Of a stretch of DNA of 64,000 nt, positions 22,625-63,532 are shown piece by piece; the first letter of the stretch is position 1; every line of letters starts with the position of its first letter. Both the position numbers and the translations under genes were made by a program. The notes beneath the pieces were generated by a model that made no database searches, had not been told where the DNA came from, and was given only the letters and a program-made list of their open reading frames with translations. The DNA comes from Escherichia phage vB_EcoP-ZQ2: sequence record NC_070874.1; one strand, given 5' to 3'.

Positions 22625-25600
22625 TTGAACAGGAATCATGCTATGTCAACATTTGACCGTCTGGCAGGTTTCGCAGACAGCATCACTACTGCTAAGCAAG
22701 TCGATGTCTCTACTGCAACCTCTCGGAAACAAGCTGAACAAGGGCAAAACCCTTTCCAATTAACCCCACAGAACGCCTACCAGTTACAGGCAGGTCGTGC
22801 CGGTGATTTAGGTGCTGGTGCATTTGACCCAGGTTCTATTCAGGCAGATTTTACTAATGCCTCTCCTCTTGAAATCATAAACAAGTATGGCAATGAGCAA
22901 GGAATGGACATTCTTAATGCTCGTGTCAATGCAGCTAATGCTGTTCGTCGTGATTTAACTAAGAGTCGTACATATGGTGAAGCACTTGGTGATACCCTTT
23001 CTGGTGTTGGTCTTGGTGTTGCTAATACCCTTGGGGGCATTGCTGCTCTTGGCACAGGCTTGGTCAATGATAATGCCGGGGCATCCATTGCTTCCGGTCT
23101 TGACTGGTTGAACAAAGGTGTACACAACCTACAGTCTGATGCACTGAATGCTCGTCGTAATGTAGTACAGAACCAGAACGTAATATCTGCACAGGAAAAC
23201 GAAAAACAATATAAGCAGGATATTGATAAAGGAGAAAGTGAACTCGTTGCTTCCTTGTCTCGTATTGGTCGGGATGCTTACGATTCAGTTGCTAATACTT
23301 TGTCCAATGGCATGGCTGCTACAGATGGTATTGCTGAAGGTGTTGGTTCACTGTTTACTGGTGGTCCACTTATCCGTGGTGTATCTGCACTTGGTAAAGT
23401 AATGGTAGGTGGGGATAAAGCTGTTAAGGGTATTACCTTAGCTGCTGAATTAGGTTATCGTCCTGCACGTATTGCACAGACTGCTGGTCGTGTTGCTGCA
23501 CCTGCTATAGCAATTGGTGGTATGGAAGCTGGTGGTGCATACCAACAGACTGCTAATGAAATTATGGAAATGCCATTCAGTGAACTGGCTGCTAAATCTC
23601 CTGTATACCAACAACATATTAAAGATGGTTTAACTCCTGAAGAAGCACGACGTCAGACTGCATCTGAAACAGGTATCACTGCTGCTGGCTTAACCGCCCC
23701 AGTTGCTGCTCTCACTGGTCCACTGGTATCCAAGTTTGAACTTAACCCACTTAAGGTAGGTTCACTGGCTGGTGCTGGTTCTAACATGCTACGTGAGACT
23801 GTGGAGGAAGGTATTCAATCCGGTTTCGGTCAATTCGCACAGAACAAAGCAATTCAGGGTAACGTGGATGCTAATCGTGATTTGCTTAAAGGTGTAGGTG
23901 AACAAACTGGTCTAGGTGCATTGTATGGCTTTGGTTCTGCTGGGGTTGCTCAAGCTCCTGGTGTAACTGCTAAGACTGCCGTTGCTGCCGTTGGTCCTGC
24001 TGTACGTACTACCCTGGCTGGTGCTTCTCTGGCTGGTAAGGCACTAGCAAAAGTAGCTTCTCCTATTACTAACATTCTGGTTCAGCGTGGAGAAGAAGTT
24101 GCTAAGCGAAATGAGCAAGCATCTCCTGTATCAGACGTTACGGTTAATGCTGCTGCACAAGAAGCTACTGCTCAGGCAGAACAGGCTCAAGCAACTGTTC
24201 AGGAAGCAGTAGATGCAATGGACATTTCTCCAGAAGAGAAAGCTGCTGCTACTCAGTATGCTGCTGACTTAACTCAGGCAATGAAGTTTGACCCAGTAGA
24301 ACTGGAACAAGCTAGTCCAGCAATCCGTGAAGCTGTTTCTGGTTCCACTAACCGTGTTGAAGCTATTCAGAAGATGGCTGACCTGGTTAATACTGCCGAA
24401 GATCCTAACGTTCAAATGGAAGCTGCAATCCAGATGTATGACAACATCATGTCTATGGATAGCTTCATTAACCGTGACCCAGGTGCATTAGCTAATCTGG
24501 AACAGGGTTCTCCTGCTGCTAATATTGTTGACCAGTTCTCCGGTCTGATGGCTAACGTTCAGAATACACCGAAGGTACTTCGTGCATTCCGTGCCATCCA
24601 TTCCATGATTCAGGAACAGGCAGAAGCAGGTAAACTGAAGGCTACTGAAGAAGCTAACCAAGCCCAAGCAAACAACATTGCTATGGCTGCTGATATGTCT
24701 CCAGAAGTACTGGATGCTGATTCAGTGAACATGGTTCTGAAACACGCAAGTGAAGGTAAGATTACGCTGGGGAATCGTCAGCGTGCTGCCCTGCAATCTG
24801 CTGCTGCTCTATTGCAAGGAGCACGAGAATTTGATGCTAAAGCAGAAGAGCTAGGCTTACGTCCTCAAGACATTGTTAGTAAACAAATTAAAACCGACGA
24901 ATCTCGTTCTAATGAAGGCCAGTACTCTGCGTTGCAACATGCTAAACGCATTCGTTCTGCGTATAACTCTGGTAACTTCGATTTGGCTTCCGCTTATCTC
25001 GATGACTTTATGAAGTTCGCCCAGCACATGCAGAATAAGGTCGGAGCGTTGAATGAGCATTTGATTTCTGGGAATGCGGATAAGAATAAGTCTGTCCATT
25101 ATCAGGCTCTTACTCCCTCCCGTGAATGGGTACGTAGTCGTACTGGCCTCGGTGTTAATCCGTATGATACCAAGTCTGTTAAGTTTGCCCAGCAAGTAGG
25201 ACTGGAAGCCAAGACCGTAGCTGATATTGCTAACGCACTTGCTACGGCTTACCCGGAGCTTAATGTTTCTCATGTGAAAGTTACCTCATTGGATTCACGT
25301 CTGGACAAGCCTGCTGCCCAGGTAGTTAAAGAGTTCCGTCAGGGCAATCTTGACGCTGCTCAATCCCAACAGACTAATGAACCAGTGAATCAGGTTGATG
25401 AAACTCCTGTTACAAAACAGGAACCAGTTACCCCTACTGTACAGACTAAACCCTCTGTTAGTGAAGCTGTTAAAACAGAACCCACTATTAAAGAGTCTAA
25501 ACCACAGTCTGTAAAAGAACCTGAGAACCAGTCTGAAAAACAGGATACCGTTGATCAGTCTACTGAATCTGAAAGGGATGCTTATGTAAAAGAGAATACT

Positions 25601-28600
25601 ATTTCTCAAGATACTCTTAATAAGTATGGCGACCGTAAAGAGAGTCCATGGCTCTTTGCTGATGGTACTGTTGTTGGTTCTAATGGTGACCACATTAGCT
25701 TGTCCGATGTATTTGGACATGATGGTTATCGTGATATGTCACTAGATACAGGTGCTATTCGCTCTACCTTCTACAAAGGAAGCGAGCAACCATTTGTATC
25801 ATTGCAACTGTTTGATAATCAGAAACTGACTACTGAACAGTTCAATACTGTTCAATCATTCGTAGAAGCAAACAATGCACTGATTCAGATTGGTGTAGAT
25901 ACATCTGGGCTTAATACCAATAACGTTGAGAAAGAAGAAGTATCACTGGCTCAATTGAAAGCAGACTATACCGTTGGTGGTAAACCTCTATCTCAAATGG
26001 AAACAGTGTTCCCTGTCTATAACAATGAAAAGACACCGAACCAGTTCCTTAAAGCATTCTCTCTACCGGAAGAACCTAAGTCCCGTACCATTGGTTCTGA
26101 ATCTCCTTTGACTGATGTTAAGAAAGCACTGTCTTCTGTTGCTCGCTTTGAATCATTCACTCAAAAAGAAAATAACGCTCTCACAAGTGATGTGATTAAG
26201 CGTTACCAGGACTTATTTGATTTTGGTGAAACTCTGAAGACTACTCTGTCTGACCGTCTGGCTAAGTTCCTTGCTAACAAGAATGTTGGTAAACGTTTTG
26301 CAGAAGGTACTGAGGCTAACCGTTGGGTAGGTGGTAAATTACTTAACATCGTAGAGAAAGACGGAGATACCTTTAAGTTCAATGACCAGTTGTTAGAGAC
26401 TGCTGTACTTGCTGGTCTGCAATGGCGACTGACTGCTACACAGAATGCTGCCATTAAAGACATGCAGGATGTGGCTGCAATTACTGGTGTAAATGCTTCC
26501 TTGTTACCAGAAGGTATCCTTGCAGAGTTTGAGAATGCTCAAACCTTAGTAGAAGCTACTAACTCACTGGCTCAAAAGATTGAATCTTATTGGGGTCTTA
26601 ACCGCAATGCTGATGCACCTCTGGGCTATACCAAAGGTATCCCGATGGCAATGGCTACAGAGATTCTGTCTTCCCTTATTGAGATGGGTGAAGTTAAAGA
26701 GTCCATGTTGGATGTGTCTGAAATTGACTCAGAATCTAATAAGACCATTGGCCTGTATACCATTGAGAAGCTGGATGATACCGACGCCATTAACAAATTC
26801 CCTACTGCTATTGAGGAAGCTGTCCTCATAGAACCAGAAGAGAAACTGTACCTGGGTGATGACATTCCTTCCGTGGCTCCTACTCAGTTACGTAACCCAG
26901 CTGTTCGTAATACCCCAGAACAGAAAGCTGCTCTTAAAGCAGAACAGGCTACAGAGTTCTTTGTACATACCCCAATGGTTCAGTTCTATGAGGCGTTAGG
27001 TAAAGACCGTATCCTCGAACTGATGGGTGCTGGTACTCTGAATAAAGAATTACTTAACGAGAACCACGCTAAATCGCTGGAAGGTAAGAACCGTTCAGTA
27101 GAAGACTCTTATAACCAATTGTTCTCTGTTATTGAACAGGTAAGAGCACAGAGTGAAGACATCTCTTCTGTGCCTATTCATTATGCATACAATATGACCC
27201 GTGTCGGTCGTATGCAGATGTTAGGTAAATATACCCCCCAATCAGCTAAGCTGGTTCGTGAGGCTATCTTACCTACCAAAGCTACCCTGGATTTATCGAA
27301 CCAGAACAACGAGGACTTCTCGGGCTTCCAGCTTGGACTGGCTCAGGCATTGGGTATCAAAGTTCATAAAATGACTCGTGAAACTATGTCAGAAGAACTT
27401 ACCAAAGCTCTGGAAGGTAAGCTGAAACCTGCTGTAGATATGATGGTTGAGTTTGATAAGTCTGGATACTTACCTACTGATGCAGTGGATATCTTGAGAA
27501 CATCTCTGGGTAATGATAAGTCCTTTGTAGCTCTCATGGCTCTTATGGAGTATGCCCGTTACCTTAACAGTGATGACCGTGCCAACTTTAATACTCCTCT
27601 GTACGTTGAAGCTGATGGTGTAACCAACGGACCAATCAACGCAATGGTATTAATGACAGGTGGTAAGTTCACTCCAAACTGGATTAAGAATACTGCCAAA
27701 GGTGGTTTGTTCTTCGGTAAAGCCGGTAAGACTATGAATGAGCATCATACTCAGGATGATAGTGTTGACCTGTATGAAGCATCTACCAATAGTCTGCAAT
27801 TCCATCTGAATGAATTACGTAATACTTATAGTAAGAATATTCCTGTTATAAACCAGATGGACCATCTCCAGAAGTTAATGGACCTGTTCATCAAAGACTT
27901 CAATCTTAATGAAGATGGTACTCTGGACCTGAAACGTGGTATCGCTAAAAACCCACTAACCATTACTATCTATGGTTCTGGTGCTCGTGGTATTGCAGGC
28001 AAAATGGTAAGTGCAATTACTGATACCATCTACGAGCGTCTAAGCGACGTTCTGAAAGCCCGTGCTGCTGACCCTAACATTTCCCCAGCTATGGCGATGT
28101 TTGGTAAGGAGGCTGCGTCTGAAGCCGATGCTCAGGCTAAGCTGGATACTTTCCTTACTTCTATGAAAGAACTGACTGGCAAGATTCCAGCCAAACGTAA
28201 AGGTAGGTTATTTATTAAGGAAGTAGAAGGTGCTCTGACTGGCAAGTTAAATCCTCAGAAGTTTACCGTATCAGGGGATGCTCTGAAGAACTTACAAGAG
28301 AATATGCTGCACTTCTTTGTTGAGCCAATGAGACAAGGTATTCGGTTTACTGTTGGTGAAGGATTAATGCACTCTACTGAGAACTTGCAGAAGGCTACCC
28401 AGATTCAATCTCTGGTATTGCAGGATATGTTCCAGCAAGCAGTACAGGCTAAGCTGGCAGAAAAAGAAAAAGACCCAACATGGAAGAAAGGTGATTTCTT
28501 AACACAGAAAGAACTGAATGAAATTCAGAATAGCTTAGCTCCTCTGGCTCCAATGATTAAAACTGGTTCGCAGACTTTCTACATTGCTGGTAGTGAGAAT

Positions 28601-31600
28601 ACTGATGTTGCTAACCAAGTATTGGCTACTAACTTAGATGACCGTATGCGTGTACCAATGAGCATCTATGCTCCTTCGCAAGCAGGTGTTGCAGGTATTC
28701 CATTTATGACCATCGGTACTGGTGATGGCATGATGATGCAGACTCTTTCTACTATGAAAGGTGCTCCGAAGAATACCCTGAAAATCTTTGATGGTATGAA
28801 CATTGGTATTAATGACATTACTGATGCAAGCCGTAAAGCTAATGAGGCTGTATATACTTCCTGGCAGGGTAACCCTATCAAGAATGTATATGAGTCTTTC
28901 TCTAAGTTTGTTAAGAATGTTGATTTAAATAAGCTGTCCGATTCAGCAATAGATGCTATTGCAAAGTCTGCTTTAGACTTTGAGCAGCGTGCTCATATTG
29001 CCAGGGTAGATGGTGATAGAGATTATAAAATTTCTATGATTAGAGATTCTGGTATTGCATTAATTGAGCGTAACCTACGTAACATTGCTTTGGGTGTAGA
29101 TATTCGTCACAAGGTAATGGACCAGGTACAAGTCACTGTTGACCAGATGGCTGCTGTAGGTGCTCCTTATGTGAACAACGGTAAAATCTCTCTGGAAGGT
29201 CTGACTATAGACCAGCAAGTAGCCAAGCTGAACGAACTGTTTGATGCTGAATTAAACAAGCGTCGTGATGCAGTACGTGCTGCTAAAGCGGAACCAACGA
29301 AGGCAGAACCAGTGAAGGAAGTGCCGGTGAAAGTTGTACCAGCTATGGAGAAGGTAGGTCGTGTACTGAAGTCTGGTGTACGTCTGCTGTCTAATACTGC
29401 TATCACTAAGCTGGCTAAAGAAATGACCCCTGATCAGCAAGCAGTATTGAAAGAAATACAGAAATCCCTTGCTGCTAAAGACTATAAGGTTGTTTACGGT
29501 ACACCTTCTCAACTGGATGCTTATGCCATTGAGAAGAATATTACTCGCCCAGCACCGGAAGATATTGAAGCTGCTGAAGCTGGTAATGCATACGGCTGGA
29601 CTAACTTTGAAGATAAGACCATCTACTTAGTTACCCCTTCCTTAGAGACTCTGGTTCATGAATTAGTACATGCCTCTACTTTTGAATCTGTGCTGGCTCA
29701 CTACGAGGGTACTCCTAATGAAGCAGTCCAGAATATTGAAGACTTGATGAACCAGTTCCTTACTCTGGATGTTAAGGATGAATCTCCGGCAGTACGTGAA
29801 GCGTATGCCGATGCACTGAATACCATTAATGGTCACCTGTCTAATGGCTTCATTGAACCAGCAATGGCTAAAGCTGCTGCTCTGAATGAGTACATGGCTT
29901 GGGGTTTAACCAACCGTGAACTTATTAGTAAGCAGAAGAAAACCACTGCACTTAAAACTATGGTTCAGGCTGTATATGAAGCAATCAAACGTCTGGTATT
30001 TGGGCGTAAGAAAGCTCCAGCTAATGCAGATGATATGTTCTCAGGCTTACTGTTTAACTCTGCTGTAGTAATGCGTGGGCAGGCTCCTACTGCTGCTGTA
30101 GCTAAAGACACTACTCTGTTCCATAACAAAGCATACGGTAACAATACTCGTCTGGAAGAGTTAGGTAAGACCTTCGATAAACTAATTACTGACTACATTG
30201 GTTCAGAACCAGTACAGCAAGTAATTCGTAAAGGTAAGTTCTCTGATGCAGTAGTGAATGCAACTAAAGTAACTCGTGATGTTCAGGCTCATGGCTTCAC
30301 CATGAATATGCAGGAACAGCGTCTATTTACTAACATTGTTGCTGCACTTGCTACTGAGGCTGCTATTAACCCAGCAGCCATGGCTCGTGCACAGGAATAC
30401 TACACGCATGTTACTAAGAACTTGACCGTTGAAGCGTTCATGGCTGACCCAGATAGTACTAACCCTGCTGACCGTTACTATGCACAACAGAAGTTCGACA
30501 CCATCATGGGTGCTAACAACATTGAGTTTGATGCACAAGGTCGTTCTTCCTTACTGCCTACCTTTGTTGGTCTGGCAATGGTAAGTGAAGAGGTACGTAA
30601 GGTACTGGCTGATATTCCTGTTATGAAAGCAGATAAGAAATCAGGTAATACTGTTGACGCAATGCTGACTAACATCGGTACTGCTGCAATGGTTAGTCTG
30701 AATGCTCGTGTAGCAGGTGATACTAAAGCCACTAACGTGCGGGAAGGTATGGATGCACTGGCTCAGACAATTATGGAGACTAGCCTTAATGCACAATCTT
30801 TCTATGATTCCGTTGCTACCCCTACTGGTAATGCTATCGACCGTGCTAACCAATATCTGGTGGATTCTATTGATGTACTGTCTACTCGTACTTTGGAAGG
30901 TGCTCGTGAAGTTGCAGCTAATACCAAGAACCCACTAGTTAAAGGTGCTGCTCATGCTGCACAATTGGTAGCTGCTATTGCTACAGAGAAAAATGGTGCA
31001 ATTGTAGCTGAGGGTGTTATGGCTGCAATGAACCAGGGTAAAGTATGGCAACCGTTCCATGACCTGGTTAATGACATAATCGGTCGTACTAAGAGCAATG
31101 CTTCTGTATACGATTTGATTAAAGCAGTACGTGCACAGGTGCAAGCTGACCGTCAACAGTTCCGTGAGCATTTGCCTACCACTATCGCATCTAAGTTCAG
31201 CCGTAAGCTGACTAATGATGAGTGGAAAGCAATGCATACCGGTATGGGTAAAACTGACTTAGCTGTTCTTCGTGACACTATGTCTCTGGCTGAAATCCGT
31301 GACCTGTTGACTGACCAGAAGATTGTTGACCGTGAGGTTAATAAACTGGAAGCAGATTTGCAGAAGCAAGCCGGACGTAACTGGCCTCTGATTAGTCGTA
31401 AGTCTAAGCAACTGGCTCAGTACATGATTAATGGTACAGTCGGTAATAACCTGCTGCGTAATGCTACTGCAATTTCTCGTTTACTGGGTGAACGTAAGAC
31501 TACACGTTCTGTTGTAGATGTAGCACAACTGGATAAATTGATTACCCTGTATGCACTGGAAGCAATGAATAAGACTGACCGTGAGATGTTATCTTCACTG

Positions 31601-33460
31601 GCTCAGACAGAAATTGAAGGCATGGACTTTGCTATTTCTTACCTGGTTGGTCAGCGTAAAGATGAAATGGCTAAAGCTAAATCTGATAGCCGTGCAACCT
31701 TGAACCAGTACAAAGGGTATATTCCCGGTGAGACTAAACAGGGTGTTAATCTGATTGTTGCTGAAGATAATCAGTTTGCTGATTTGATTGAGAAATCCTA
31801 TGTACGTCTGGGTACTTATCAGGGTAGCTCTGCTAACCGTGGTCCAGCACGTAGCTACTACTTTGCACCAGTACAGGCACAGGCTCCATTCTCACAGGGT
31901 ATTCTACAGAACGTTCGTAATACTGCTGGTGGTGTAGACCTTGGTACAGGCTTTACGATGGGGACCATGGTAGCTGGTCGTATCACTGACAAACCTTCCG
32001 TAGACCGTATCACTAAAGCACTGGCTCGTGGTGAACGTGGTAATGAACCACTGCTGCCTGTATATGATACCAATGGTAATGTGGTTGCTTATGAGCAATC
32101 CATTGACCCAAGCATGCTGAAGCACATCGAGGGTGAGAACCATCTTGCTCGTGCAATCGGTGTATGGCGAGGTCGTCAGGTAGAAGAGGCTAAGGCTCAG
32201 CGTTTCAACGATATGCTGATTGAGAACCTGCATAGCATGTATGAGAACGACATTAAAATGTCTGCTTCTAATAAGTCCCAGTACGTTAACCTTCTTGGTT
32301 CTAAACTGGACCCAGTAACTGCTGATGCACTTAAGCTGATGAACAGTGAAACTCGTCAGAAAGCAGAAAGTCTGTTTGGCCCGGGTGAGCTATGGGTACG
32401 TCGTGACATGCTGAATGATGCACTAGGTTATCGTGCAGCTTCTGTTGGTGATGCCTGGTCTGGTAATTCTCGTTGGTCCCCAGAAACACTGGATACCTTC
32501 AAGAAAGCTATGCTGGGTGTCTTCGGTAACCGAGCCTATAAATATGTAATGGGTGGTGAGAACCTGGTTCAAAACTTAGTTAAAGAAGCTAAGACTCTAA
32601 TTGTAGTTAAGTCAGTAGTTGTACCTGCTGTTAACTTCCTGGCTAACCTTTACCAGATGGTTGCTCGTGGTGTACCTGTTAAGAACATTGCTAAGAGCAT
32701 TCCACAGAAGACTGCTGAGATTAATCAGTACCTGAAATCTCGCCTGCGTCAGGTAGATGCAGAAGCAGAATTACGTGCAGCTACTAACCCGAACCAGATT
32801 CGTAAACTTAAGGCTGAGATTCAATCAATCACTGATAGCCATAAACGTTTGAGTATCTGGCCTCTGTTAGAAGCTGGTGAGTTCTCTTCAATTGCAGATG
32901 CTGGTATTGGACGTGATGACATCCTGATTACTGAAGGTAAGATTCACGAATACATGGATAAGCTGGCTGATAAGCTGCCTAAGTCTGTACGTAACGCAGG
33001 TCGTTATGCACTTATCACTAAGGATACTGCTCTGTTCCAGGGTATCCAGAAGACGGTTGAGTACTCTGACTTTATCGCTAAAGCAATCATCTATGATGAA
33101 CTGACTCAGCGTAAAGGTAAGACTCGCGAAGAAGCACTGGGACGTGTAACAGAAGAGTTCATTAACTATGACCGTCTGCCAGGTCGCTTCCGTGGGTATA
33201 TGGAAAGTGTTGGTCTTATGTGGTTCTATAACTTTAAGATTCGTTCTGCAAAAGTTGCAGTATCCATGATTCGTAACAACCCAGTACATGCTGCTATGGC
33301 TATGTTGGCCCCAACCCCTACCATGTTTGGTAATGTTGGTCTGCCTATTAAGGACAACATCTTTAGTATTGCTGCACAGGGCAACCTCGGTTACTCCTTC
33401 GGATTCGGTATGGGCTTACGTGCCCATACCCTGAACCCGTGGCTCAACCTTACTAACTAA
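22625..33460 (+). CDS. virion-encapsidated giant RNA polymerase (N4 vRNAP-like)
   Basis: single 3611-aa ORF; central region with T7-like RNAP-type motifs (IYGSGARGI, FDGMNIG); position next to internal virion protein genes. Confidence 0.8.
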   Translation: MNRNHAMSTFDRLAGFADSITTAKQVDVSTATSRKQAEQGQNPFQLTPQNAYQLQAGRAGDLGAGAFDPGSIQADFTNASPLEIINKYGNEQGMDILNARVNAANAVRRDLTKSRTYGEALGDTLSGVGLGVANTLGGIAALGTGLVNDNAGASIASGLDWLNKGVHNLQSDALNARRNVVQNQNVISAQENEKQYKQDIDKGESELVASLSRIGRDAYDSVANTLSNGMAATDGIAEGVGSLFTGGPLIRGVSALGKVMVGGDKAVKGITLAAELGYRPARIAQTAGRVAAPAIAIGGMEAGGAYQQTANEIMEMPFSELAAKSPVYQQHIKDGLTPEEARRQTASETGITAAGLTAPVAALTGPLVSKFELNPLKVGSLAGAGSNMLRETVEEGIQSGFGQFAQNKAIQGNVDANRDLLKGVGEQTGLGALYGFGSAGVAQAPGVTAKTAVAAVGPAVRTTLAGASLAGKALAKVASPITNILVQRGEEVAKRNEQASPVSDVTVNAAAQEATAQAEQAQATVQEAVDAMDISPEEKAAATQYAADLTQAMKFDPVELEQASPAIREAVSGSTNRVEAIQKMADLVNTAEDPNVQMEAAIQMYDNIMSMDSFINRDPGALANLEQGSPAANIVDQFSGLMANVQNTPKVLRAFRAIHSMIQEQAEAGKLKATEEANQAQANNIAMAADMSPEVLDADSVNMVLKHASEGKITLGNRQRAALQSAAALLQGAREFDAKAEELGLRPQDIVSKQIKTDESRSNEGQYSALQHAKRIRSAYNSGNFDLASAYLDDFMKFAQHMQNKVGALNEHLISGNADKNKSVHYQALTPSREWVRSRTGLGVNPYDTKSVKFAQQVGLEAKTVADIANALATAYPELNVSHVKVTSLDSRLDKPAAQVVKEFRQGNLDAAQSQQTNEPVNQVDETPVTKQEPVTPTVQTKPSVSEAVKTEPTIKESKPQSVKEPENQSEKQDTVDQSTESERDAYVKENTISQDTLNKYGDRKESPWLFADGTVVGSNGDHISLSDVFGHDGYRDMSLDTGAIRSTFYKGSEQPFVSLQLFDNQKLTTEQFNTVQSFVEANNALIQIGVDTSGLNTNNVEKEEVSLAQLKADYTVGGKPLSQMETVFPVYNNEKTPNQFLKAFSLPEEPKSRTIGSESPLTDVKKALSSVARFESFTQKENNALTSDVIKRYQDLFDFGETLKTTLSDRLAKFLANKNVGKRFAEGTEANRWVGGKLLNIVEKDGDTFKFNDQLLETAVLAGLQWRLTATQNAAIKDMQDVAAITGVNASLLPEGILAEFENAQTLVEATNSLAQKIESYWGLNRNADAPLGYTKGIPMAMATEILSSLIEMGEVKESMLDVSEIDSESNKTIGLYTIEKLDDTDAINKFPTAIEEAVLIEPEEKLYLGDDIPSVAPTQLRNPAVRNTPEQKAALKAEQATEFFVHTPMVQFYEALGKDRILELMGAGTLNKELLNENHAKSLEGKNRSVEDSYNQLFSVIEQVRAQSEDISSVPIHYAYNMTRVGRMQMLGKYTPQSAKLVREAILPTKATLDLSNQNNEDFSGFQLGLAQALGIKVHKMTRETMSEELTKALEGKLKPAVDMMVEFDKSGYLPTDAVDILRTSLGNDKSFVALMALMEYARYLNSDDRANFNTPLYVEADGVTNGPINAMVLMTGGKFTPNWIKNTAKGGLFFGKAGKTMNEHHTQDDSVDLYEASTNSLQFHLNELRNTYSKNIPVINQMDHLQKLMDLFIKDFNLNEDGTLDLKRGIAKNPLTITIYGSGARGIAGKMVSAITDTIYERLSDVLKARAADPNISPAMAMFGKEAASEADAQAKLDTFLTSMKELTGKIPAKRKGRLFIKEVEGALTGKLNPQKFTVSGDALKNLQENMLHFFVEPMRQGIRFTVGEGLMHSTENLQKATQIQSLVLQDMFQQAVQAKLAEKEKDPTWKKGDFLTQKELNEIQNSLAPLAPMIKTGSQTFYIAGSENTDVANQVLATNLDDRMRVPMSIYAPSQAGVAGIPFMTIGTGDGMMMQTLSTMKGAPKNTLKIFDGMNIGINDITDASRKANEAVYTSWQGNPIKNVYESFSKFVKNVDLNKLSDSAIDAIAKSALDFEQRAHIARVDGDRDYKISMIRDSGIALIERNLRNIALGVDIRHKVMDQVQVTVDQMAAVGAPYVNNGKISLEGLTIDQQVAKLNELFDAELNKRRDAVRAAKAEPTKAEPVKEVPVKVVPAMEKVGRVLKSGVRLLSNTAITKLAKEMTPDQQAVLKEIQKSLAAKDYKVVYGTPSQLDAYAIEKNITRPAPEDIEAAEAGNAYGWTNFEDKTIYLVTPSLETLVHELVHASTFESVLAHYEGTPNEAVQNIEDLMNQFLTLDVKDESPAVREAYADALNTINGHLSNGFIEPAMAKAAALNEYMAWGLTNRELISKQKKTTALKTMVQAVYEAIKRLVFGRKKAPANADDMFSGLLFNSAVVMRGQAPTAAVAKDTTLFHNKAYGNNTRLEELGKTFDKLITDYIGSEPVQQVIRKGKFSDAVVNATKVTRDVQAHGFTMNMQEQRLFTNIVAALATEAAINPAAMARAQEYYTHVTKNLTVEAFMADPDSTNPADRYYAQQKFDTIMGANNIEFDAQGRSSLLPTFVGLAMVSEEVRKVLADIPVMKADKKSGNTVDAMLTNIGTAAMVSLNARVAGDTKATNVREGMDALAQTIMETSLNAQSFYDSVATPTGNAIDRANQYLVDSIDVLSTRTLEGAREVAANTKNPLVKGAAHAAQLVAAIATEKNGAIVAEGVMAAMNQGKVWQPFHDLVNDIIGRTKSNASVYDLIKAVRAQVQADRQQFREHLPTTIASKFSRKLTNDEWKAMHTGMGKTDLAVLRDTMSLAEIRDLLTDQKIVDREVNKLEADLQKQAGRNWPLISRKSKQLAQYMINGTVGNNLLRNATAISRLLGERKTTRSVVDVAQLDKLITLYALEAMNKTDREMLSSLAQTEIEGMDFAISYLVGQRKDEMAKAKSDSRATLNQYKGYIPGETKQGVNLIVAEDNQFADLIEKSYVRLGTYQGSSANRGPARSYYFAPVQAQAPFSQGILQNVRNTAGGVDLGTGFTMGTMVAGRITDKPSVDRITKALARGERGNEPLLPVYDTNGNVVAYEQSIDPSMLKHIEGENHLARAIGVWRGRQVEEAKAQRFNDMLIENLHSMYENDIKMSASNKSQYVNLLGSKLDPVTADALKLMNSETRQKAESLFGPGELWVRRDMLNDALGYRAASVGDAWSGNSRWSPETLDTFKKAMLGVFGNRAYKYVMGGENLVQNLVKEAKTLIVVKSVVVPAVNFLANLYQMVARGVPVKNIAKSIPQKTAEINQYLKSRLRQVDAEAELRAATNPNQIRKLKAEIQSITDSHKRLSIWPLLEAGEFSSIADAGIGRDDILITEGKIHEYMDKLADKLPKSVRNAGRYALITKDTALFQGIQKTVEYSDFIAKAIIYDELTQRKGKTREEALGRVTEEFINYDRLPGRFRGYMESVGLMWFYNFKIRSAKVAVSMIRNNPVHAAMAMLAPTPTMFGNVGLPIKDNIFSIAAQGNLGYSFGFGMGLRAHTLNPWLNLTN

Positions 33461-34645: not shown

Positions 34646-34872
34646 TAGTAGCTTTAACGCAGCTAACGAGGCTAGGCCAGTTAACTATTACCACCGGTGC
34701 TTGTACCAGCAAACAGGATTGATAGTCCGATAATAGATAACTGTATTTGAGCATTATAGTCTACTCATACTCACACCGATAGGTATGTTTTCAATAGCTA
34801 GAGTGCCGGACTGTCTCACCGGCATTGTCTTTAGAGTGCAATGCAATCAGGACTATGTTCTCTATTAATGAG

Positions 34873-34946
34873 TACCCACTACTGGATTTGAACCAGTGAC
34901 TTTCCAATTATTAGTTGGTTGCTTTCCCCGTCTAAGCTAAGTGGGC
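34873..34946 (-). tRNA. tRNA, 74 nt, anticodon read as AAU (Ile-type, atypical A34)
   Basis: hand-folded cloverleaf: acceptor GCCCACT/AGTGGGT (one G-U), D-stem GCTT/AAGC, anticodon stem CCAA/TTGG with loop CTAATAA, T-stem ACTGG/CCAGT with loop TTCAAAT, discriminator A. Confidence 0.6.
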
Positions 34947-36031
34947 ATAATGGGTGAGTCATGCCAGACTTTAACTGGCTCCTTCTTCGCAATCCTTACA
35001 TACCCCTACATAATTATTGCGTTAAGCTTTTTTGTTTAAGTTTAAGTGAAGGCGTTCTTGCTGACTCATAATAGGGTGGGCGTTTGACGAATGACTAGTT
35101 CGTTACTACCCATTTGCCATAAGTACCTGGCGACTTCGGATAACGGGGGATGGAATCGAACCACCAGTATTAAGTCTTATTCGTGCACCAAGCACGCTAG
35201 TAGATTACTCTACCGGAGGGAATCGAACCCCATCTACTTCACCAGACCCGTCATAATTCTTACAATTCAAAGTAGCACTGCTCCATGTTTGGCCTTTGAA
35301 CTCCGGGATGGATTAGTACAATGCTACTTTGAATTAATTGCCAGGGATTCCACCTGGCTCCATCTGTTTTTATAGTCACTCAGATATCGTCTGGACTTTG
35401 ATAGCACAACCTATCAAAGAGTACACTAAGCACAGGTAGCTATCCTGCCGTCTTCTCCACCTACACCGGCTACAGTGTAGACCTCCGCACGTTAGCTTAA
35501 TGTACTCATTGATAGGATGTCATAATAGGGGAGGGAGGACGAGTCCCTCTTTACCCTATGATTTAGTTTACATGTAAGACCTAACATTTCAATGCTGGAT
35601 GAATAGCGTAATGAACTATCCGACATTAATGATTAATGTTGTGCTCAGCATGAGCGTTAGTTTGATAAGGGATCTGAAGCCTTACCCCAAAGATACTAAC
35701 CTTTGGGGTATAGCCTAAGATTCAGAAATGGCCCCCCATATAGAGAGAGGCCATTGATTAACCCGAATGTTGCTTTACATTTTCTGTGATAACCCATTCT
35801 TAAAATAGTCTGACTGACGGATGGGGGGCCACCCCTAGCGTCAGTGCCATACGGCAAAGATTAAGTTAAGAAAGGTTATGATAGGAGTTCCTATCTCAAA
35901 GGATTCTAACAGAACCCTTCACGATATTAACTACTCACTGTGAAATTCTTTGTTTCCTTCAACAGGTTCTACACCCAAGAAAAAGCTAACTTTTCACTTA
36001 GTTTAGATTGAACCAACGGACTGGGGAGAGT

Positions 36032-36529
36032 TTATCTCCCATGGCGTAAGGTGTAGTTGTGATTCTTTACCAGGTCTGCTTCTATAGTAGCCCGGTATGC
36101 TATAGCAGCATCTTTGGCTTCGCTATCCCCAAGAACACCAATGTTGAAGCTTTTAGTTCGTAGCTTACCTGTATGCGGATCATTCCAAGCAGCAGTCCAA
36201 TATTCGTTGGTCTTCTTCCATTGTCTATACACACCGGTAGTGCCTGATGTATTGTCACTTCTTTTGCGACGATTGCGACAGTTAATCATATGGGACACTA
36301 GTCTCATATTAATAAGTCGACAATCGGTTGGGATTCCATTGATGTGGTCAACTTCATACCCATCCGGGATTGGTCCATTATAGTATTCCCAAATCCAGTT
36401 GTGCAGAAATACCCTCACCCCATGACGTTTAATACGGATGTACCCATCCTTTGCATTGGCATCATCGGGAGAATGTACTACAGCGAGTTCATGGGCAGGT
36501 TTATTCCAGTATCCTAATGGCTTGCTCAT
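36032..36529 (-). CDS. HNH homing endonuclease (HNH plus AP2-like DNA-binding region)
   Basis: ...YEVDHINGIPTDCRLINMRLVSHMIN...TSGTTGVYRQ... typical free-standing phage HNH. Confidence 0.75.
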   Translation of the reverse strand: MSKPLGYWNKPAHELAVVHSPDDANAKDGYIRIKRHGVRVFLHNWIWEYYNGPIPDGYEVDHINGIPTDCRLINMRLVSHMINCRNRRKRSDNTSGTTGVYRQWKKTNEYWTAAWNDPHTGKLRTKSFNIGVLGDSEAKDAAIAYRATIEADLVKNHNYTLRHGR

Positions 36530-36760
36530 AAATACCTCAGATGAACCAGAGAGCTTCGGAGAGTATTAAAACTCTCTGGTTCGGTTGTTGTTACTCTGGC
36601 GGCTTGTCACCACCGTTTTTATCACTGAGTTTCCAAAGTATAAGCACAGTGATGATAAATGCTATGTATGGAGCCGACACGTCCAGAATCCTGATAAGCA
36701 ATAGCATCAGAATTACGAACACTACCACAAATAGCAGCAGCTTCTGAGCCACCTACCAGA

Positions 36761-37207
36761 TTAACTACGTTTAAGGCCAGCGAACAGTGAAGGCTTAGTA
36801 GCAGGTTTCTCTGCCGGTTCTTCAGCCTTAACCTCTTCCTGCACAGCTTCTTCTTGTGCTTCTGGTTCAGTTACTGCTTCTTCTTCAGGTTCCGGCGTAG
36901 AACTCTCGTTCGGACCACCAGTAGAGGTCTGGGTTTCTTCTACCTTTACATCTTCAACAGCTTCTTCCGGCTCTGGTTCTACCGGGCGGTGTTTAGCTTC
37001 TTGTGGGTTCTTACGAGAACGGCGAGTTTTCTTCTCTACTCCCACGGGTGGAGTATCATCGTTATGACTTACCTCTTCATTGATACCAATAGAGGCTGTG
37101 CCATCTGCATTTACAACAATGCTGGCCTCCCCTGGATAATTAACTTGTTCATCTACATACGCCTGGATAGCTGCTTCTACTTCAGCTTGGTTCAAAGTGA
37201 TTTGCAT
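36761..37207 (-). CDS. acidic low-complexity protein (E/P/A-rich C-terminal half)
   Basis: 148 aa; ...PEPEEEAVTEPEAQEEAVQEEVKAEEPAEKPATK... Confidence 0.5.
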   Translation of the reverse strand: MQITLNQAEVEAAIQAYVDEQVNYPGEASIVVNADGTASIGINEEVSHNDDTPPVGVEKKTRRSRKNPQEAKHRPVEPEPEEAVEDVKVEETQTSTGGPNESSTPEPEEEAVTEPEAQEEAVQEEVKAEEPAEKPATKPSLFAGLKRS

Positions 37208-39405: not shown

Positions 39406-41559
39406 TTACTTGCCAGCGAAGCGTTTAGCCACGGTGACCATTACGGTTGCATTCAATTCATCATCTGGTAATGGATTAGCCAGTTTCTTATTGAATGAGT
39501 GGACGGCTTGCTGTACTTGGGCAAAGTCCCAACCACTGTCAACCAATGCCAGTGCGTACTTAATCATTTGATTATTACGATTACCGGTAGCAATACGACT
39601 AGCGAACCAACGCTCCAGATTATCCAACGACTGTACTTCCTTCATCTGGTTCCGGAACTGCTCGTTCTTACTAGTACGAGGAATAAAGTCACGCACGTCC
39701 AACAGATTTGCTTCAAGATTGTAATGATAGGAACCAGTCTCACAGGACATCCATTTCTTGGCTCGTTGGTTAGCAGATTCATCCGTTTCGAACGGTAGCC
39801 AAGACATAACGTTATTCATGAACTCTTTGTATTCCTCGGTGTCGAGGTGTAACTCATAGTTCATTGGAATAATCAGTCGGAATCGGTTCTCTTCATCAGA
39901 ATGACGCTTAGTGGTATAGGTCATGAACTTATATTCCTTCATCAGTTCATGGCACGTATGCAGTGGTACTCCACCATCACAGTCAATAACAATCATGTTA
40001 AATCCTGGAATAACGTTCTCTTCGGAACGATGGCCATTTTTCATGTGATGGTTTACCCAGTGCATACCGGGAGCTTGGGTTAATACATGCAACTGGTCGA
40101 ACGGTACACGTTCACCAATGTAGTCATAAGCAAAGCTATCACTATATGCCACTATCATCTCATTGATGTCAGTCTCTTTCAGAGTTTCCCCACGGAAGAA
40201 CTCAATACCTTCATTGAAGGTTTTCTTAATGATGATGTGCTGTTTGTAACCCCATGCTGTAGCAAGGGTCATCATCTCATTACGGGCTGCATTACCACTC
40301 TTATAGAACGGCAATGACTCCAACAAATCAGCATGAGTCACTTCTTTACCTACAGAGGCAATGTACTTAGCCAGCTTCACATAGGCTTTCTCACGATTGA
40401 GAATACCCTGGAATGCTGCCCCGGATTCCTCTACAAGCAGGATTGCTTGTTTAAGGTGAGACATCTCAATGAATGAACTCTGGTCAACAAATGCCAGTGC
40501 CCCAGCCAGTTTAAGTGCTTTGAAGTAACGGTGTTTTATTTCATTTTTACGGATTTCTTCATGGTCTGACATAGCTGCTGCTTGTTTATCACAGTCAACT
40601 TTATAGGCCATTGCTGCAATGCCTACATCGTCTTCTACAACCATCCTATAACCGAATAAGTTTGGGTCAGCTAAATCATGAAATTTATTTGCCCATTTAC
40701 TAACAGTAATATTGTTATCCGTTTTAATGAGATTTCTGTAAATTTCTTCTGGAGTCATACTCACAAAAGCTTGTTGGTCTACTTGACCAATTGCAAATAA
40801 GCAACGGCGAGCATAACCAGTATCCAGAAAATCATAGAATTGGTCTTCGATTTGACCACCATCTAACAGCTTACTTGGTGTACCAAAAAGTAGCAGATTA
40901 GTAGGAGTCTTACCGTCCAGTTCTTCCCCTCGCTGGCTCTCGGCAGTGTTCTTGGTCAGCTTCTGTTTAACCTTACCCTGGTCATATAATTCCAGGAACA
41001 GAGTTAATACGTCTGTGTTGGCCAACAGGTTTGAACCAATTTCATCAATCTGAAGGTTGATTGAACCACACCCAGCCATTAACAACTTGTGACGTAATTG
41101 TTTAACTGCTGGTGGAGTACCAGAGTCAAACGTAAACGGATATGCCCCAGCACGTTTATATTCTGCTTCAACTTTATCAAACTCATCATTCTGGTCTGTA
41201 CCCTGACGAGCAGCACGTTCGTTGGCAATCTTCCATAGGCGGTCATTTGCAATGACGGGCATGGTGTCTTCCATAAAACGTTTACGGAATCCAGACATAA
41301 ACCCGTCTTCAATGATATTTACTGAGTGACCTTTACCGAAACCAGATGTAGCCAACGCAATAGCGTAGATGTTTACCGGCAGGTCACCACGGTCTTTAGT
41401 TACAATGGTTGCACCCATGCAGGATGCCATTTTAGCCAAGAAGTAGGCTACTTCGACACGGAAAAATCCCCGGTCATTATTCTGGGTTTTATTGCAGAGC
41501 ACATCTACGATTTCTTCAATCGCCGGATGGTGACTGATGCCAGTAAGGTCGATACTCAT
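39406..41559 (-). CDS. putative DNA primase (N4 gp43-like position)
   Basis: 717 aa in replication module between SSB/ATPase and DNA polymerase; functional call by synteny and size. Confidence 0.45.
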   Translation of the reverse strand: MSIDLTGISHHPAIEEIVDVLCNKTQNNDRGFFRVEVAYFLAKMASCMGATIVTKDRGDLPVNIYAIALATSGFGKGHSVNIIEDGFMSGFRKRFMEDTMPVIANDRLWKIANERAARQGTDQNDEFDKVEAEYKRAGAYPFTFDSGTPPAVKQLRHKLLMAGCGSINLQIDEIGSNLLANTDVLTLFLELYDQGKVKQKLTKNTAESQRGEELDGKTPTNLLLFGTPSKLLDGGQIEDQFYDFLDTGYARRCLFAIGQVDQQAFVSMTPEEIYRNLIKTDNNITVSKWANKFHDLADPNLFGYRMVVEDDVGIAAMAYKVDCDKQAAAMSDHEEIRKNEIKHRYFKALKLAGALAFVDQSSFIEMSHLKQAILLVEESGAAFQGILNREKAYVKLAKYIASVGKEVTHADLLESLPFYKSGNAARNEMMTLATAWGYKQHIIIKKTFNEGIEFFRGETLKETDINEMIVAYSDSFAYDYIGERVPFDQLHVLTQAPGMHWVNHHMKNGHRSEENVIPGFNMIVIDCDGGVPLHTCHELMKEYKFMTYTTKRHSDEENRFRLIIPMNYELHLDTEEYKEFMNNVMSWLPFETDESANQRAKKWMSCETGSYHYNLEANLLDVRDFIPRTSKNEQFRNQMKEVQSLDNLERWFASRIATGNRNNQMIKYALALVDSGWDFAQVQQAVHSFNKKLANPLPDDELNATVMVTVAKRFAGK

Positions 41560-42071
41560 TTGATTAATCCTACGCTCTTATTAGTGACGGCATATTCTCC
41601 GAAGTATTTTACGGCAGCTAAGTCATACGCTTTGGCTGCTTCAATTGCTTCCAGGAATACACCTAAATGAATTGATTTACGGTTTACTTTGATTTTGGCT
41701 AAGTAGTTACCCCTGAACTTAGTAACACCCATAAAACCACTGGTATTGTTTTTATTCAGTCCACGGTTAGCACCATTGGTGCTTTTATCCGCTTCTCTTA
41801 GATTGTCTATCCAGTTGTGGTGACGTATGGTGTCTTTATGGTCTATTAAACCAGTAGGCCACATACCGTACACGTACAACCAAGCTAACCTATGAGCAGC
41901 TTCCCGTTTGGAATCAACTGTTATGTAGAGATAACCGTCACTGTTATTGAGCGACCCAGCAACACTACCGACAGGTGTTCGGTTACTGAGGGAGATGCGG
42001 CGAGTAAATATCCCAGTAAGTGGGTCATAATGCAGCAACTCTTTTAGCCGTTGCTGAGTCAGCTTAATCAT
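41556..42071 (-). CDS. HNH homing endonuclease (free-standing)
   Basis: ...HRLAWLYVYGMWPTGLIDHKDTIRHHNWIDNLRE...TSGFMGVTKF...; start set to the ATG forming an ATGA overlap with the upstream stop; stop also forms ATGA overlap with primase start. Confidence 0.7.
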   Translation of the reverse strand: MIKLTQQRLKELLHYDPLTGIFTRRISLSNRTPVGSVAGSLNNSDGYLYITVDSKREAAHRLAWLYVYGMWPTGLIDHKDTIRHHNWIDNLREADKSTNGANRGLNKNNTSGFMGVTKFRGNYLAKIKVNRKSIHLGVFLEAIEAAKAYDLAAVKYFGEYAVTNKSVGLIK

Positions 42072-43048
42072 GATGGAAAATATCTCTCTCTTTGTTTGCA
42101 AATGGACGCGACAGGGCAGTATAGACAACGCTTAACCTGCCCCTCCACGACCTTGATAGCACCCTTGCCACCTTTTTCAGCCATGAAGATACGAGCAGAT
42201 GCCATATCGTCAAAGTTTTTAGTACTTCTGGCTCCAGGTACATCTACCTTAGAAGCATCAGAGAAGTATTTGAACTGTGGTTCTGTTCGCCACAACTCCT
42301 CGTCAGTACATTCAGGAATTTCCTCTTCAGGTGCATTCCAATACTTCTCAATGAGGTGAATCTTCTCTTCTACCCAACGTTCAGTCTTATCGACAGACAG
42401 CAACGGAATATCCTTATGCATAATACGATTAGCAGGATAGTTCGGATTGCTATTAGCCATATGCTTCATGAAGTCAGTGAAGATGTAGTTAATACGGATT
42501 ACATCCTCGGTAATGATGTCGTTGTGAATCCAACGGTACAAGCTGCCTTGCATCTTGTGTTCATCATCACGGGAACCAGCAACCCAGGAATAGGTTGAGG
42601 TGGACTTAAAGTCTTGCAACAGACCCTCTGTTACGATGTCGAACTTACCACCGATAGTCCAACCCTTAACTACCCTGGTTCCACGCTGTTCAATGTAGAT
42701 TGGGATAAGGTCAGGGTTAGCATCAAAGTCTGCTTTGGTTGGGTTAATGACTACTGCATCAATTACTCGCTGGGAATAACCTAGCTTCTTCAATGCAGTC
42801 TTATGACCCAGCTTCCAGGCTTTCTCGATAGAATCATGTAAACCAGTACCCATTGATGTGGAGACAAAATCCATAACATCAATTGACTGGTCACTGAGGT
42901 CTACACGATGTTTCATGACGATTTGCTTAATAGGCTTAAGCAATGTGGTAACAGACAGGTACTTAGGATTGTCTACGTAATCATACTCATCATGTAGTAG
43001 CCATACAGCCAGAGCCAGTGAGACATCATGATTGTTGGTTATCTTCAT
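42068..43048 (-). CDS. PD-(D/E)xK-family nuclease with C-terminal Cys cluster (Cas4/RecB-like exonuclease)
   Basis: 326 aa; C-terminal ...RCLYCPVASICKQR... cysteine cluster; position next to DNA polymerase. Confidence 0.5.
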   Translation of the reverse strand: MKITNNHDVSLALAVWLLHDEYDYVDNPKYLSVTTLLKPIKQIVMKHRVDLSDQSIDVMDFVSTSMGTGLHDSIEKAWKLGHKTALKKLGYSQRVIDAVVINPTKADFDANPDLIPIYIEQRGTRVVKGWTIGGKFDIVTEGLLQDFKSTSTYSWVAGSRDDEHKMQGSLYRWIHNDIITEDVIRINYIFTDFMKHMANSNPNYPANRIMHKDIPLLSVDKTERWVEEKIHLIEKYWNAPEEEIPECTDEELWRTEPQFKYFSDASKVDVPGARSTKNFDDMASARIFMAEKGGKGAIKVVEGQVKRCLYCPVASICKQRERYFPS

Positions 43049-53692: not shown

Positions 53693-53735
53693 TTATTTAC
53701 TCTCCAGATTAAATGTTGCTTCTCGGATGTGACTA

Positions 53736-60181: not shown

Positions 60182-60215
60182 TTACTTACTCTCCTAAAGC
60201 TAATGGAATTGCTAA

Positions 60216-62438: not shown

Positions 62439-63532
62439 AGAGAACTCTTGCCCCAGTACCTGAGACAGGATGAAGCCCAGCAAGTCACTCTTAGCAATGT
62501 CAGATAGAATCTGATTGTACTGACGACGCAGGTCATTACCGTAGTTAGGATGACATCTAAAACCATTAGTTAAACGAGTCGTTAGCTCGCCCTTACCTTC
62601 CATGATTAACATGGAAGCCATACGTAGCATCTGCTTCTTTACGAGCAAGCATTGCCTCCTCAAGTGTGTCATACGTACCCAGACCAATCTGTTTACGATT
62701 GACTGTGATGTGTGCCTGGAATCTACCAGAAGGCAATATTCTTACACCATTCACTTTGCTTGATGTATTACGTGATAAACCCATATTCATCTGGTTCTGT
62801 CTACTGGTTACATTTCTCAGATTAGACCAACGGTTGTCGTTTCTAATGTGATTGATGTGATCCACCTGGTTAGGTGTTTCCCCTGTTTCCATTATCCAGA
62901 TTATTCGATGCAGTAAGTACTCTTTACGACCCAGACTAACAGATAAATAGCCTTCTTTGTGAGGATACCCCACAATTGTTCCGGCTAATCCACTAGCAGA
63001 GTCGAAACGATGAGTTACTAGCCCACTTTCTCTGTCATACCTTAAAACCTTCTTCAAAGATTCTCGGGTAATGGTATCCAAGTCTTTTATCAGGTTCTTA
63101 CAGGTAGGGCATAGGTGGCCTATTGGACTCTTTTTAGCATCATAGAAGTTGCAAACAAACTCATTAGAGCATTGCTTACAACTACAGATAGCTGTGTACT
63201 TACCAGTTTTACGTAATATTTGGGAGTTATCTAACATATGGATTCCTTAGTAATTTTGCATACAATTTCAGATTGTATCCTAACCAAGGAAGTAAGTCTC
63301 CGGTTTTCACCGGAGTATCGGACTATATCATCACCCACTAATCAGTGGGGCAAGGCGCTTGGGTGGTCACTTGACTCACCTACTCTACTCACATACGAAA
63401 TGTTTTCGATAGTCTCTGAACCTTCCCTCATGGAGGGCTTGGCTGCTGATTGGCATATCCATAGGACTTAGCTTTCCAGCAATTCACCTTGTTTTCGACA
63501 CGGATTACTCCGTGAAGGATCATTTATGTTTA
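62439..63532 (-). mobile_element. group I intron with HNH homing endonuclease ORF, inserted in the RNA polymerase gene (boundaries approximate)
   Basis: on minus strand in order: P2-like GNRA hairpin (63499..63514), P element GAATTGCTGGAAAGC (63471..63486), Q CCAATCAGCAGCC (63441..63453), R GGTTCAGAGACTA (63407..63422), P8 hairpin (63334..63349), S GATATAGTCC (63320..63329), P9 hairpin (63298..63315), then HNH ORF. Confidence 0.7.
62593..63237 (-). CDS. intron-encoded HNH homing endonuclease with N-terminal CxxC zinc-finger-like motifs
   Basis: ...YLSVSLGRKEYLLHRIIWIMETGETPNQVDHINHIRNDNRWSNLRNVTSRQNQMN...; CSCKQC and CPTC at N-terminus. Confidence 0.75.
   Translation of the reverse strand: MLDNSQILRKTGKYTAICSCKQCSNEFVCNFYDAKKSPIGHLCPTCKNLIKDLDTITRESLKKVLRYDRESGLVTHRFDSASGLAGTIVGYPHKEGYLSVSLGRKEYLLHRIIWIMETGETPNQVDHINHIRNDNRWSNLRNVTSRQNQMNMGLSRNTSSKVNGVRILPSGRFQAHITVNRKQIGLGTYDTLEEAMLARKEADATYGFHVNHGR

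Follow-up and report, generated by a model that had tools for sequence, protein, structure and literature searches.

A conserved invariant-loop hairpin and a small membrane-protein gene at the end of the replication operon of a G7C-like phage, beside a putative homing endonuclease gene

By comparison with known genomes, the 64,000-nucleotide stretch analysed here (the window) is that of a G7C-like phage (Gamaleyavirus, N4-like). A search with 2.8 kb around the locus matched 89 phage records, almost all of them Gamaleyavirus (G7C-like, N4-related Schitoviridae); the best of these was HK2, with 81% coverage and 92% identity, and no record gave full coverage. The minus strand carries homologues of N4 gp43, gp44, gp45 (SSB), gp46 (RuvC-like) and gp47, ending at 36761, and past them a small open reading frame (ORF), a stem-loop and an HNH endonuclease gene (Table 1). 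The gp47 homologue has no match in Pfam or in NCBIfam. Beyond the HNH gene, from 34.6 to 36.0 kb, the DNA is mostly non-coding, with a single tRNA-Ile(AAT). By homology we identify the locus as the 3' end of the middle (replication/recombination) operon, with a selfish HNH insertion added later.

Table 1. Features at and around the locus, in window coordinates.
Feature	Position	Strand	Basis or remark
Virion RNA polymerase (vRNAP)	22625-33460	+	3611-aa ORF
tRNA-Ile, anticodon AAT	about 34872-34946	-	sole tRNA detected in the "tRNA region"
Partial second hairpin copy: ACUCUCC (3' part of loop) and 3' arm CCAGUCCGUUGGUUC	36010..36031	-	comparison with HK2
Free-standing HNH (HNH_3 + AP2-like) endonuclease gene, 165 aa	36032..36529	-	Pfam, PHROG
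Shine-Dalgarno sequence of the HNH gene, GAGG, 5 nt upstream of ATG 36529-36527	36535..36538	-	sequence reading
Conserved stem-loop: 5' arm 36568-36582, loop AAUACUCUCC 36558-36567, 3' arm 36543-36557	36543..36582	-	fold, covariation
Small membrane-protein gene, 53 aa, GTG start, MAQKLLLFVVVFVILMLLLIRILDVSAPYIAFIITVLILWKLSDKNGGDKPPE	36591..36752	-	conservation, phrog_19025
Possible 7-bp stem (GGUGGCU/AGCUGCU) enclosing the GUG start	36736..36753	-	invariant bar one one-sided change; unproven by covariation
N4 gp47 homologue, 148 aa; last large gene of the gp43-gp47 replication/recombination operon	36761..37207	-	phrog_7641, E 8e-63

The first-pass annotation of this DNA had proposed a possible 38-codon minus-strand ORF upstream of the HNH gene. 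The frame exists and belongs to a real gene, but its start had been placed too far downstream: the 38 codons from ATG 36708 are the 3' part of a 53-codon ORF that begins at GTG 36752, directly behind an in-frame TAG. The internal ATG reads ATT in the N4 group, and N4 has an ATG at the upstream start, so that the longer reading is the conserved one. The start lies 8 nt past the gp47 stop codon here and 8-13 nt past it in every genome examined, with a weak Shine-Dalgarno sequence. Comparative genomics had been proposed as a check on this ORF, and it rules out non-conservation: the ORF is intact in 32 of 32 related loci (17 distinct DNA sequences, 8 distinct protein sequences), all indels are multiples of three (+6 nt in Jgk1, minor in-frame differences in the N4 group), and comparison with G7C, KP8, the related locus L017 and N4 gives a dN/dS of 0.26-0.36. 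RNAalifold over the whole ORF predicted helices that are almost all invariant, giving no support for a structured non-coding RNA over coding. We conclude from this pattern of conservation that the ORF is a real, under-annotated gene, for a predicted membrane protein.

Hydropathy places two hydrophobic segments in the small protein, at about residues 5-22 and 28-40, separated by an invariant R..DVSAPY turn and followed by a charged C-terminal tail ending in KPPE. The protein may form a helical hairpin or a single kinked helix; AlphaFold2, run on the single sequence, returned one long helix (residues 2-46, pLDDT 86.7, pTM 0.47), which counts, though not decisively, against the helical hairpin. 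Neither Pfam nor NCBIfam holds a match, and residues 1-42 match PHROG 19025 (E 9.1e-10), a family without assigned function, making the protein a member of an already clustered, uncharacterised family. Directly after gp47, Achromobacter phage JWAlpha has a homologue (JJJB_0067, 42% identity), as does Erwinia phage Ea9-2 (Ea92_64A, 26% identity, with APY and PP motifs in common), and small hydrophobic ORFs likewise follow gp47 in the phages P184 (Klebsiella) and CB4 (Pectobacterium), where the label is "membrane protein". PHROG 19025, KP8 gp060, AlfredRasser bas69_0030, JJJB_0067 and Ea92_64A resemble the window's protein in size, in position after gp47 and in having two hydrophobic segments, and share with it an S/I-A-P-Y motif and a C-terminal PP. 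The small protein would probably be translationally coupled to gp47 and insert into the inner membrane.

The ORF had also been described as unannotated, which is correct for the N4 and G7C reference records, from which it is missing, but not for KP8 (gp060) and AlfredRasser (bas69_0030), where it is annotated at full length, for "nithesis", where it is annotated as 38 aa, or for PHROG 19025. A search of 5.8 billion proteins found three matches and an exhaustive search of 1.84 billion representatives found one, mostly of the 38-aa truncated form; because large protein collections are nearly empty of the family, we took its breadth from DNA. The gene is an example of how gene callers lose small GTG-initiated genes. 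Small transmembrane proteins of phages include holins and antiholins, which are encoded in a lysis cassette beside the endolysin or spanin; by position we rejected this identity, as all subfamilies checked have the gene immediately behind gp47, within the replication operon. Within the ORF, a 17-nt block (GACGTGTCGGCTCCATA, 36661-36677 on the minus strand) encodes DVSAPY and shows no synonymous change anywhere from this phage to N4, although the ORFs differ by about 28% overall; the block may be under nucleotide-level constraint on top of the coding constraint.

The call of an HNH endonuclease at 36032..36529 stands. The ORF matches Pfam HNH_3 (PF13392) over residues 41-83 with 62.2 bits (cut-off 24.8) and phrog_99, "HNH endonuclease", with E 3e-35; the C-terminal part is AP2-like, with a sub-threshold score for AP2 (PF00847; 28.3 bits, cut-off 33.3, E 2e-6). 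The catalytic His/Asn motif is intact by eye (...EVDHINGIPTDCRLINMRLVSHMINCRN..., with D-H, N and H..N present), and searches of PDB sequences and of NCBIfam gave no match. The protein has 98.2% identity to G7C gp47.1 (YP_004782178.1, a putative HNH homing endonuclease) and 84% to an ORF at the same site on the metagenomic IMG/VR contig L016; the next-best matches are at most 49% identical and lie at other places in other genomes. At this site the gene occurs in the window, in G7C and in the L016/L056 loci, with a ribosome-binding site of its own, and no other relative examined has it there. The HNH-bearing L016 has an HNH-less twin, L066, with an identical hairpin. From these comparisons we class the gene as one for an ordinary, putative free-standing homing-type endonuclease of sporadic occurrence, already known as G7C gp47.1. 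The description of it as a third HNH gene also held up: two weaker HNH-AP2-type paralogues are encoded on the minus strand at 41556-42128 (190 aa) and 62593-63237 (214 aa), about 32-34% identical to it, and G7C likewise has three matching places.

Between the small ORF and the HNH gene, an 8-bp inverted repeat had been recorded at 36548..36581. The repeat is present, as CCAGAGAG at 36546-36553 and CTCTCTGG at 36572-36579, but its coordinates were about 2 nt off and the real helix is longer, with 15 bp: 11 Watson-Crick pairs, then U.G, U-A, U-A and U.G, closing a loop of 10 nt. The bare 8-bp repeat is within chance for the 231-nt spacer, whereas the 15-bp helix with its covariation is above chance. 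An 81-nt segment with the hairpin folds with a dG of -27 kcal/mol (z = -3.9), and 2 of 200 shuffles fold equally well. Across 17 distinct sequences, 95.7% of cells are paired and 8 of the 15 pairs show double changes; this covariation score was reached by none of 500 shuffles, and slid controls pair at 51% or less. The loop reads UACUCUCC / TACTCTCC in all 53 relatives, borne on 21 stem variants of 11-19 bp. These relatives were gathered by a 17-nt anchor inside the small ORF, independent of the loop, and are true relatives with enough sequence. N4 itself keeps the loop on a stem that has no sequence in common with the window's stem.

The hairpin had been presented as a minor feature of the HNH spacer. 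This does not hold: covarying, loop-invariant and present in HNH-less relatives, it is the most unusual element of the locus. All N4/G7C/KP8/Moo19-type phages examined carry it, those without the HNH gene included, and we judge it older than the HNH gene, since every HNH-less relative including N4 has it. The same comparisons bear on the view that the hairpin and the small ORF are by-products of the HNH gene (a target-site duplication, a cassette terminator), or that the ORF is a chance ORF of the spacer. The three features are indeed adjacent here and part of the hairpin is duplicated across the HNH gene; however, hairpin and ORF occur in all HNH-less relatives including N4, the ORF is under purifying selection with in-frame indels only, and the changes in the hairpin are compensatory. 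We regard this view as refuted by the comparative data and give it next to no probability.

A covariance model of the hairpin scores 75 bits at the locus, and its next match in the 64-kb window is the hairpin's own antisense at 20 bits, so that the element is single-copy there. Each hairpin contains 2-4 G.U pairs. Given the frequent G.U pairs and the difference of 75 against 20 bits between the strands, we assign the structure to the sense strand. The covariance models of Rfam 15 gave no match at 36543-36582 even at E <= 1, with only the tRNA scoring, and our own model did not find the hairpin in six distant Schitoviridae (Ea9-2, Paxi, JWAlpha, LUZ7, P184 and CB4); on this sampling the predicted structure is confined to Enquatrovirinae. 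A literature search returned no description of a loop-invariant hairpin, of its relation to the HNH gene, or of N4 RNAPII terminators, and the hairpin appears to be an RNA motif not described before.

Conservation of the backbone stops at the hairpin, and 13-20 nt further on at least eight different contexts set in: the 56-aa gp47.2 ORF (17 loci), the HNH gene, two deletion forms, four unrelated ORFs, and in N4 non-coding DNA up to the tRNAs. These changing contexts mark the hairpin as the border between a conserved replication operon and a hypervariable tRNA/ORF zone. Among other Schitoviridae, JWAlpha, P184, CB4 and Paxi have a canonical terminator with a GC stem and a T-run after gp47 or its small ORF, abutting the convergent vRNAP gene. 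The window's hairpin resembles these rho-independent terminators in its operon-end position and as a stable sense-strand stem-loop, but differs in its invariant 10-nt loop, its longer stem (11-19 bp) and its lack of a U-tract, and past it genes and tRNAs go on, whereas past the terminators comes the convergent vRNAP gene. The 3' flank reads UCAUCUGA here and CAACCGAG, AUACAUAA and similar in relatives, and a terminator scan did not list the hairpin. We rejected a canonical intrinsic (rho-independent) terminator for want of the U-tract.

In the syntenic orf64-orf69 operon of LUZ7, termination is stepwise and leaky (PMC9163698), and an intergenic region (L037 4384-4783) downstream of the gp47-like ORF68 and of ORF69 is reported to yield, late in infection, three small RNAs (PMC9163698). 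The small ORF and the hairpin are both absent from LUZ7, and its small RNAs are a loose lead by synteny only; the zone that yields them corresponds to the hairpin/tRNA zone of Enquatrovirinae.

The position of the hairpin makes an RNA 3'-end element the most economical reading. In the sense-strand RNA the hairpin would probably act as such an element, either a leaky terminator or attenuator or a processing or stabilising structure, and would part the replication mRNA from the downstream tRNA/accessory region. For the locus as a whole we favour, with modest confidence, an arrangement in which an operon-end RNA hairpin serves as 3'-end element behind a small membrane-protein gene, and an HNH gene homes to the hairpin site. 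Two observations sit poorly with the 3'-end role: a terminator or stabiliser needs no invariant loop and is not expected to be single-copy. That role alone leaves both unexplained, and they point to a specific factor that would recognise the invariant loop. The two observations fit a specific recognition site, perhaps one acting at the DNA level, at least as well, and a role for the same strand as single-stranded DNA (ssDNA) is a serious rival.

On the ssDNA explanation the hairpin is a single-copy recognition structure, for example a priming site for a gp43-type primase, an origin or a recombination signal. An invariant loop on a varying stem, present once in the 64-kb window, is what a site read by a specific protein would look like; the hairpin lies directly downstream of the genes for the primase, gp44, SSB, the RuvC-like protein and gp47; and covariation is the same for RNA and for ssDNA of the same strand. 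There is also a precedent in the same phage group, as the promoters of N4 vRNAP are SSB-stabilised DNA hairpins (PMC4496689), recognised single-stranded. Those early promoters have a short stem and a 3-nt loop and lie on the template strand at the left genome end (PMC4496689, PMC9163698), in contrast to the 15-bp stem (11-19 bp among relatives) and 10-nt loop found here, mid-genome and on the sense strand; on these differences in stem and loop we also rejected the hairpin as a vRNAP promoter. The 2-4 G.U pairs per hairpin, usual in RNA, would be costly in DNA; the stable strand is the transcribed sense strand, with the hairpin 9-25 nt past the stop codon, where other Schitoviridae have their terminator; and the literature found maps no origin to this locus. 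We consider a ssDNA role doubtful, though well worth keeping in mind beside the 3'-end element.

A second alternative starts from the composition of the loop. As a regulatory RNA, the hairpin would pair through its pyrimidine-rich loop UACUCUCC with purine-rich Shine-Dalgarno regions (GGAGAGUA), either of the adjacent downstream gene or of other phage mRNAs in trans. Kissing or seed loops typically combine an invariant loop with a variable stem, the Shine-Dalgarno sequence of every alternative downstream gene lies within about 10 nt of the stem, and the exact loop complement GGAGAGTA is the ribosome-binding site of two minus-strand genes, encoding an 855-aa protein (start 53692) and a 350-aa ATPase-like protein (start 60181). 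This 8-mer, however, occurs three times in the window against 2.1 expected, 34 of 100 shuffles do as well, purine runs resembling Shine-Dalgarno sequences are common anyway, and by our own geometric estimate a 15-bp stem with a 5-10 nt linker is poorly suited to an H-type pseudoknot. We hold such pairing to be quite improbable. The two ribosome-binding-site copies of GGAGAGTA lie at 53698-53705 and 60187-60194 (plus-strand coordinates), in the context GGAGAGTAA[A/G]TAAATG.

Past the HNH stop codon lies a partial second copy of the hairpin, which the first-pass annotation had missed. From the first base beyond the stop, the window reads ACTCTCCCCAGTCCGTTGGTTCAATCTAAACT (36031-36000 on the minus strand); this remnant matches the 3' half of the HK2 hairpin with one mismatch and is then colinear with HK2 and IME11, in which the start of gp47.2 is lost. 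G7C has the same remnant after its HNH gene, followed by an intact gp47.2. Here and in G7C the HNH gene thus stands between a full hairpin upstream and the 3' part of the loop with the 3' arm downstream, so that hairpin sequence flanks it as an imperfect direct repeat of 22 nt. The window and G7C are alike in insertion site, upstream hairpin, downstream remnant and HNH_3 domain and differ in backbone and in gp47.2, which is startless in the window. Their identity is about 98% over the HNH gene and hairpin (36007-36606), 83-85% over the small ORF and 70-88% over gp47, and such an island of identity is expected of a laterally moving cassette.

This arrangement suggests that the HNH enzyme may cleave in the loop. 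Two descriptions of the insertion are equally valid: within the loop (AAU|ACUCUCC), or immediately 3' of GGUUCA, the cassette then bringing along a hairpin half from a former host. In the L016 lineage the HNH gene lies 3' of the hairpin, between GGTTCAA and the ATG of the next gene, without a remnant, so that a cut in the loop rests on one lineage; moreover, HNH-bearing genomes retain an intact copy of the loop, which, in terms of self-immunity, counts against the loop as cleavage site. We propose that the enzyme is a homing-type endonuclease with the invariant hairpin site as its landing place, that it probably makes its break in or beside the loop, and that the gene would spread by recombination, with co-conversion of the hairpin.

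A bolder version of the recognition idea is that the hairpin is a dedicated Enquatrovirinae element read by a phage factor and that the HNH enzyme evolved to cut its loop. The reader could be N4 RNAPII with its cofactors, in termination or attenuation, or the replication primase on ssDNA. We advance this tentatively and think it unlikely; if true, it would be the first defined cis-signal of such a kind for N4 middle transcription or replication, and the HNH homing site would be an element in which mutation is too costly for the phage. Among model phages N4 is a classic, and to our knowledge the cis-signals of its middle transcription and replication are still poorly defined. Lying where the replication operon ends, a single-copy, invariant-loop hairpin of RNA (or ssDNA) is a concrete candidate for one. 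The HNH arrangement offers a simple system in which to ask whether a homing endonuclease exploits a structured, immutable site. No major paradigm is altered; operon-end stem-loops and homing endonuclease sites are both known kinds.

The zone beyond the HNH gene holds several further features. An AAT anticodon in a tRNA-Ile is unusual for bacteria; in relatives this tRNA is labelled Ile or "Xle" and is accompanied by 0-6 more. The remainder of the non-coding stretch of about 1.4 kb yielded no tRNA and no Rfam match. Further hairpins lie in it at 35813-35845, 35672-35721 and 35522-35562, and may be additional structured RNAs or decayed tRNAs; the first of these (ACTGACGGATGGGG/CCCCTAGCGTCAGT) keeps its outer stem in HK2 and IME11 and has a different inner stem and loop there. 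The gp47.2 remnant, at 35935-36009 on the minus strand, lacks its start region, a loss also seen in HK2 and IME11, and the gene is intact as 56 aa (MNKFTIHW...) in G7C, SP5M and pSb-1; a 37-aa ORF annotated in the HK2 record across the remnant and the hairpin is probably spurious. The matched stretch of phage 24-32N includes an "anti-CRISPR" label, which sits on the gene annotated Gp52 at its far end, and we set it aside as not concerning this locus. The interval between gp47 and gp48 carries no annotation in the N4 reference NC_008720 (L005 1940-2170), and AlfredRasser, which is near-identical to N4, has four tRNAs and the small ORF annotated there.
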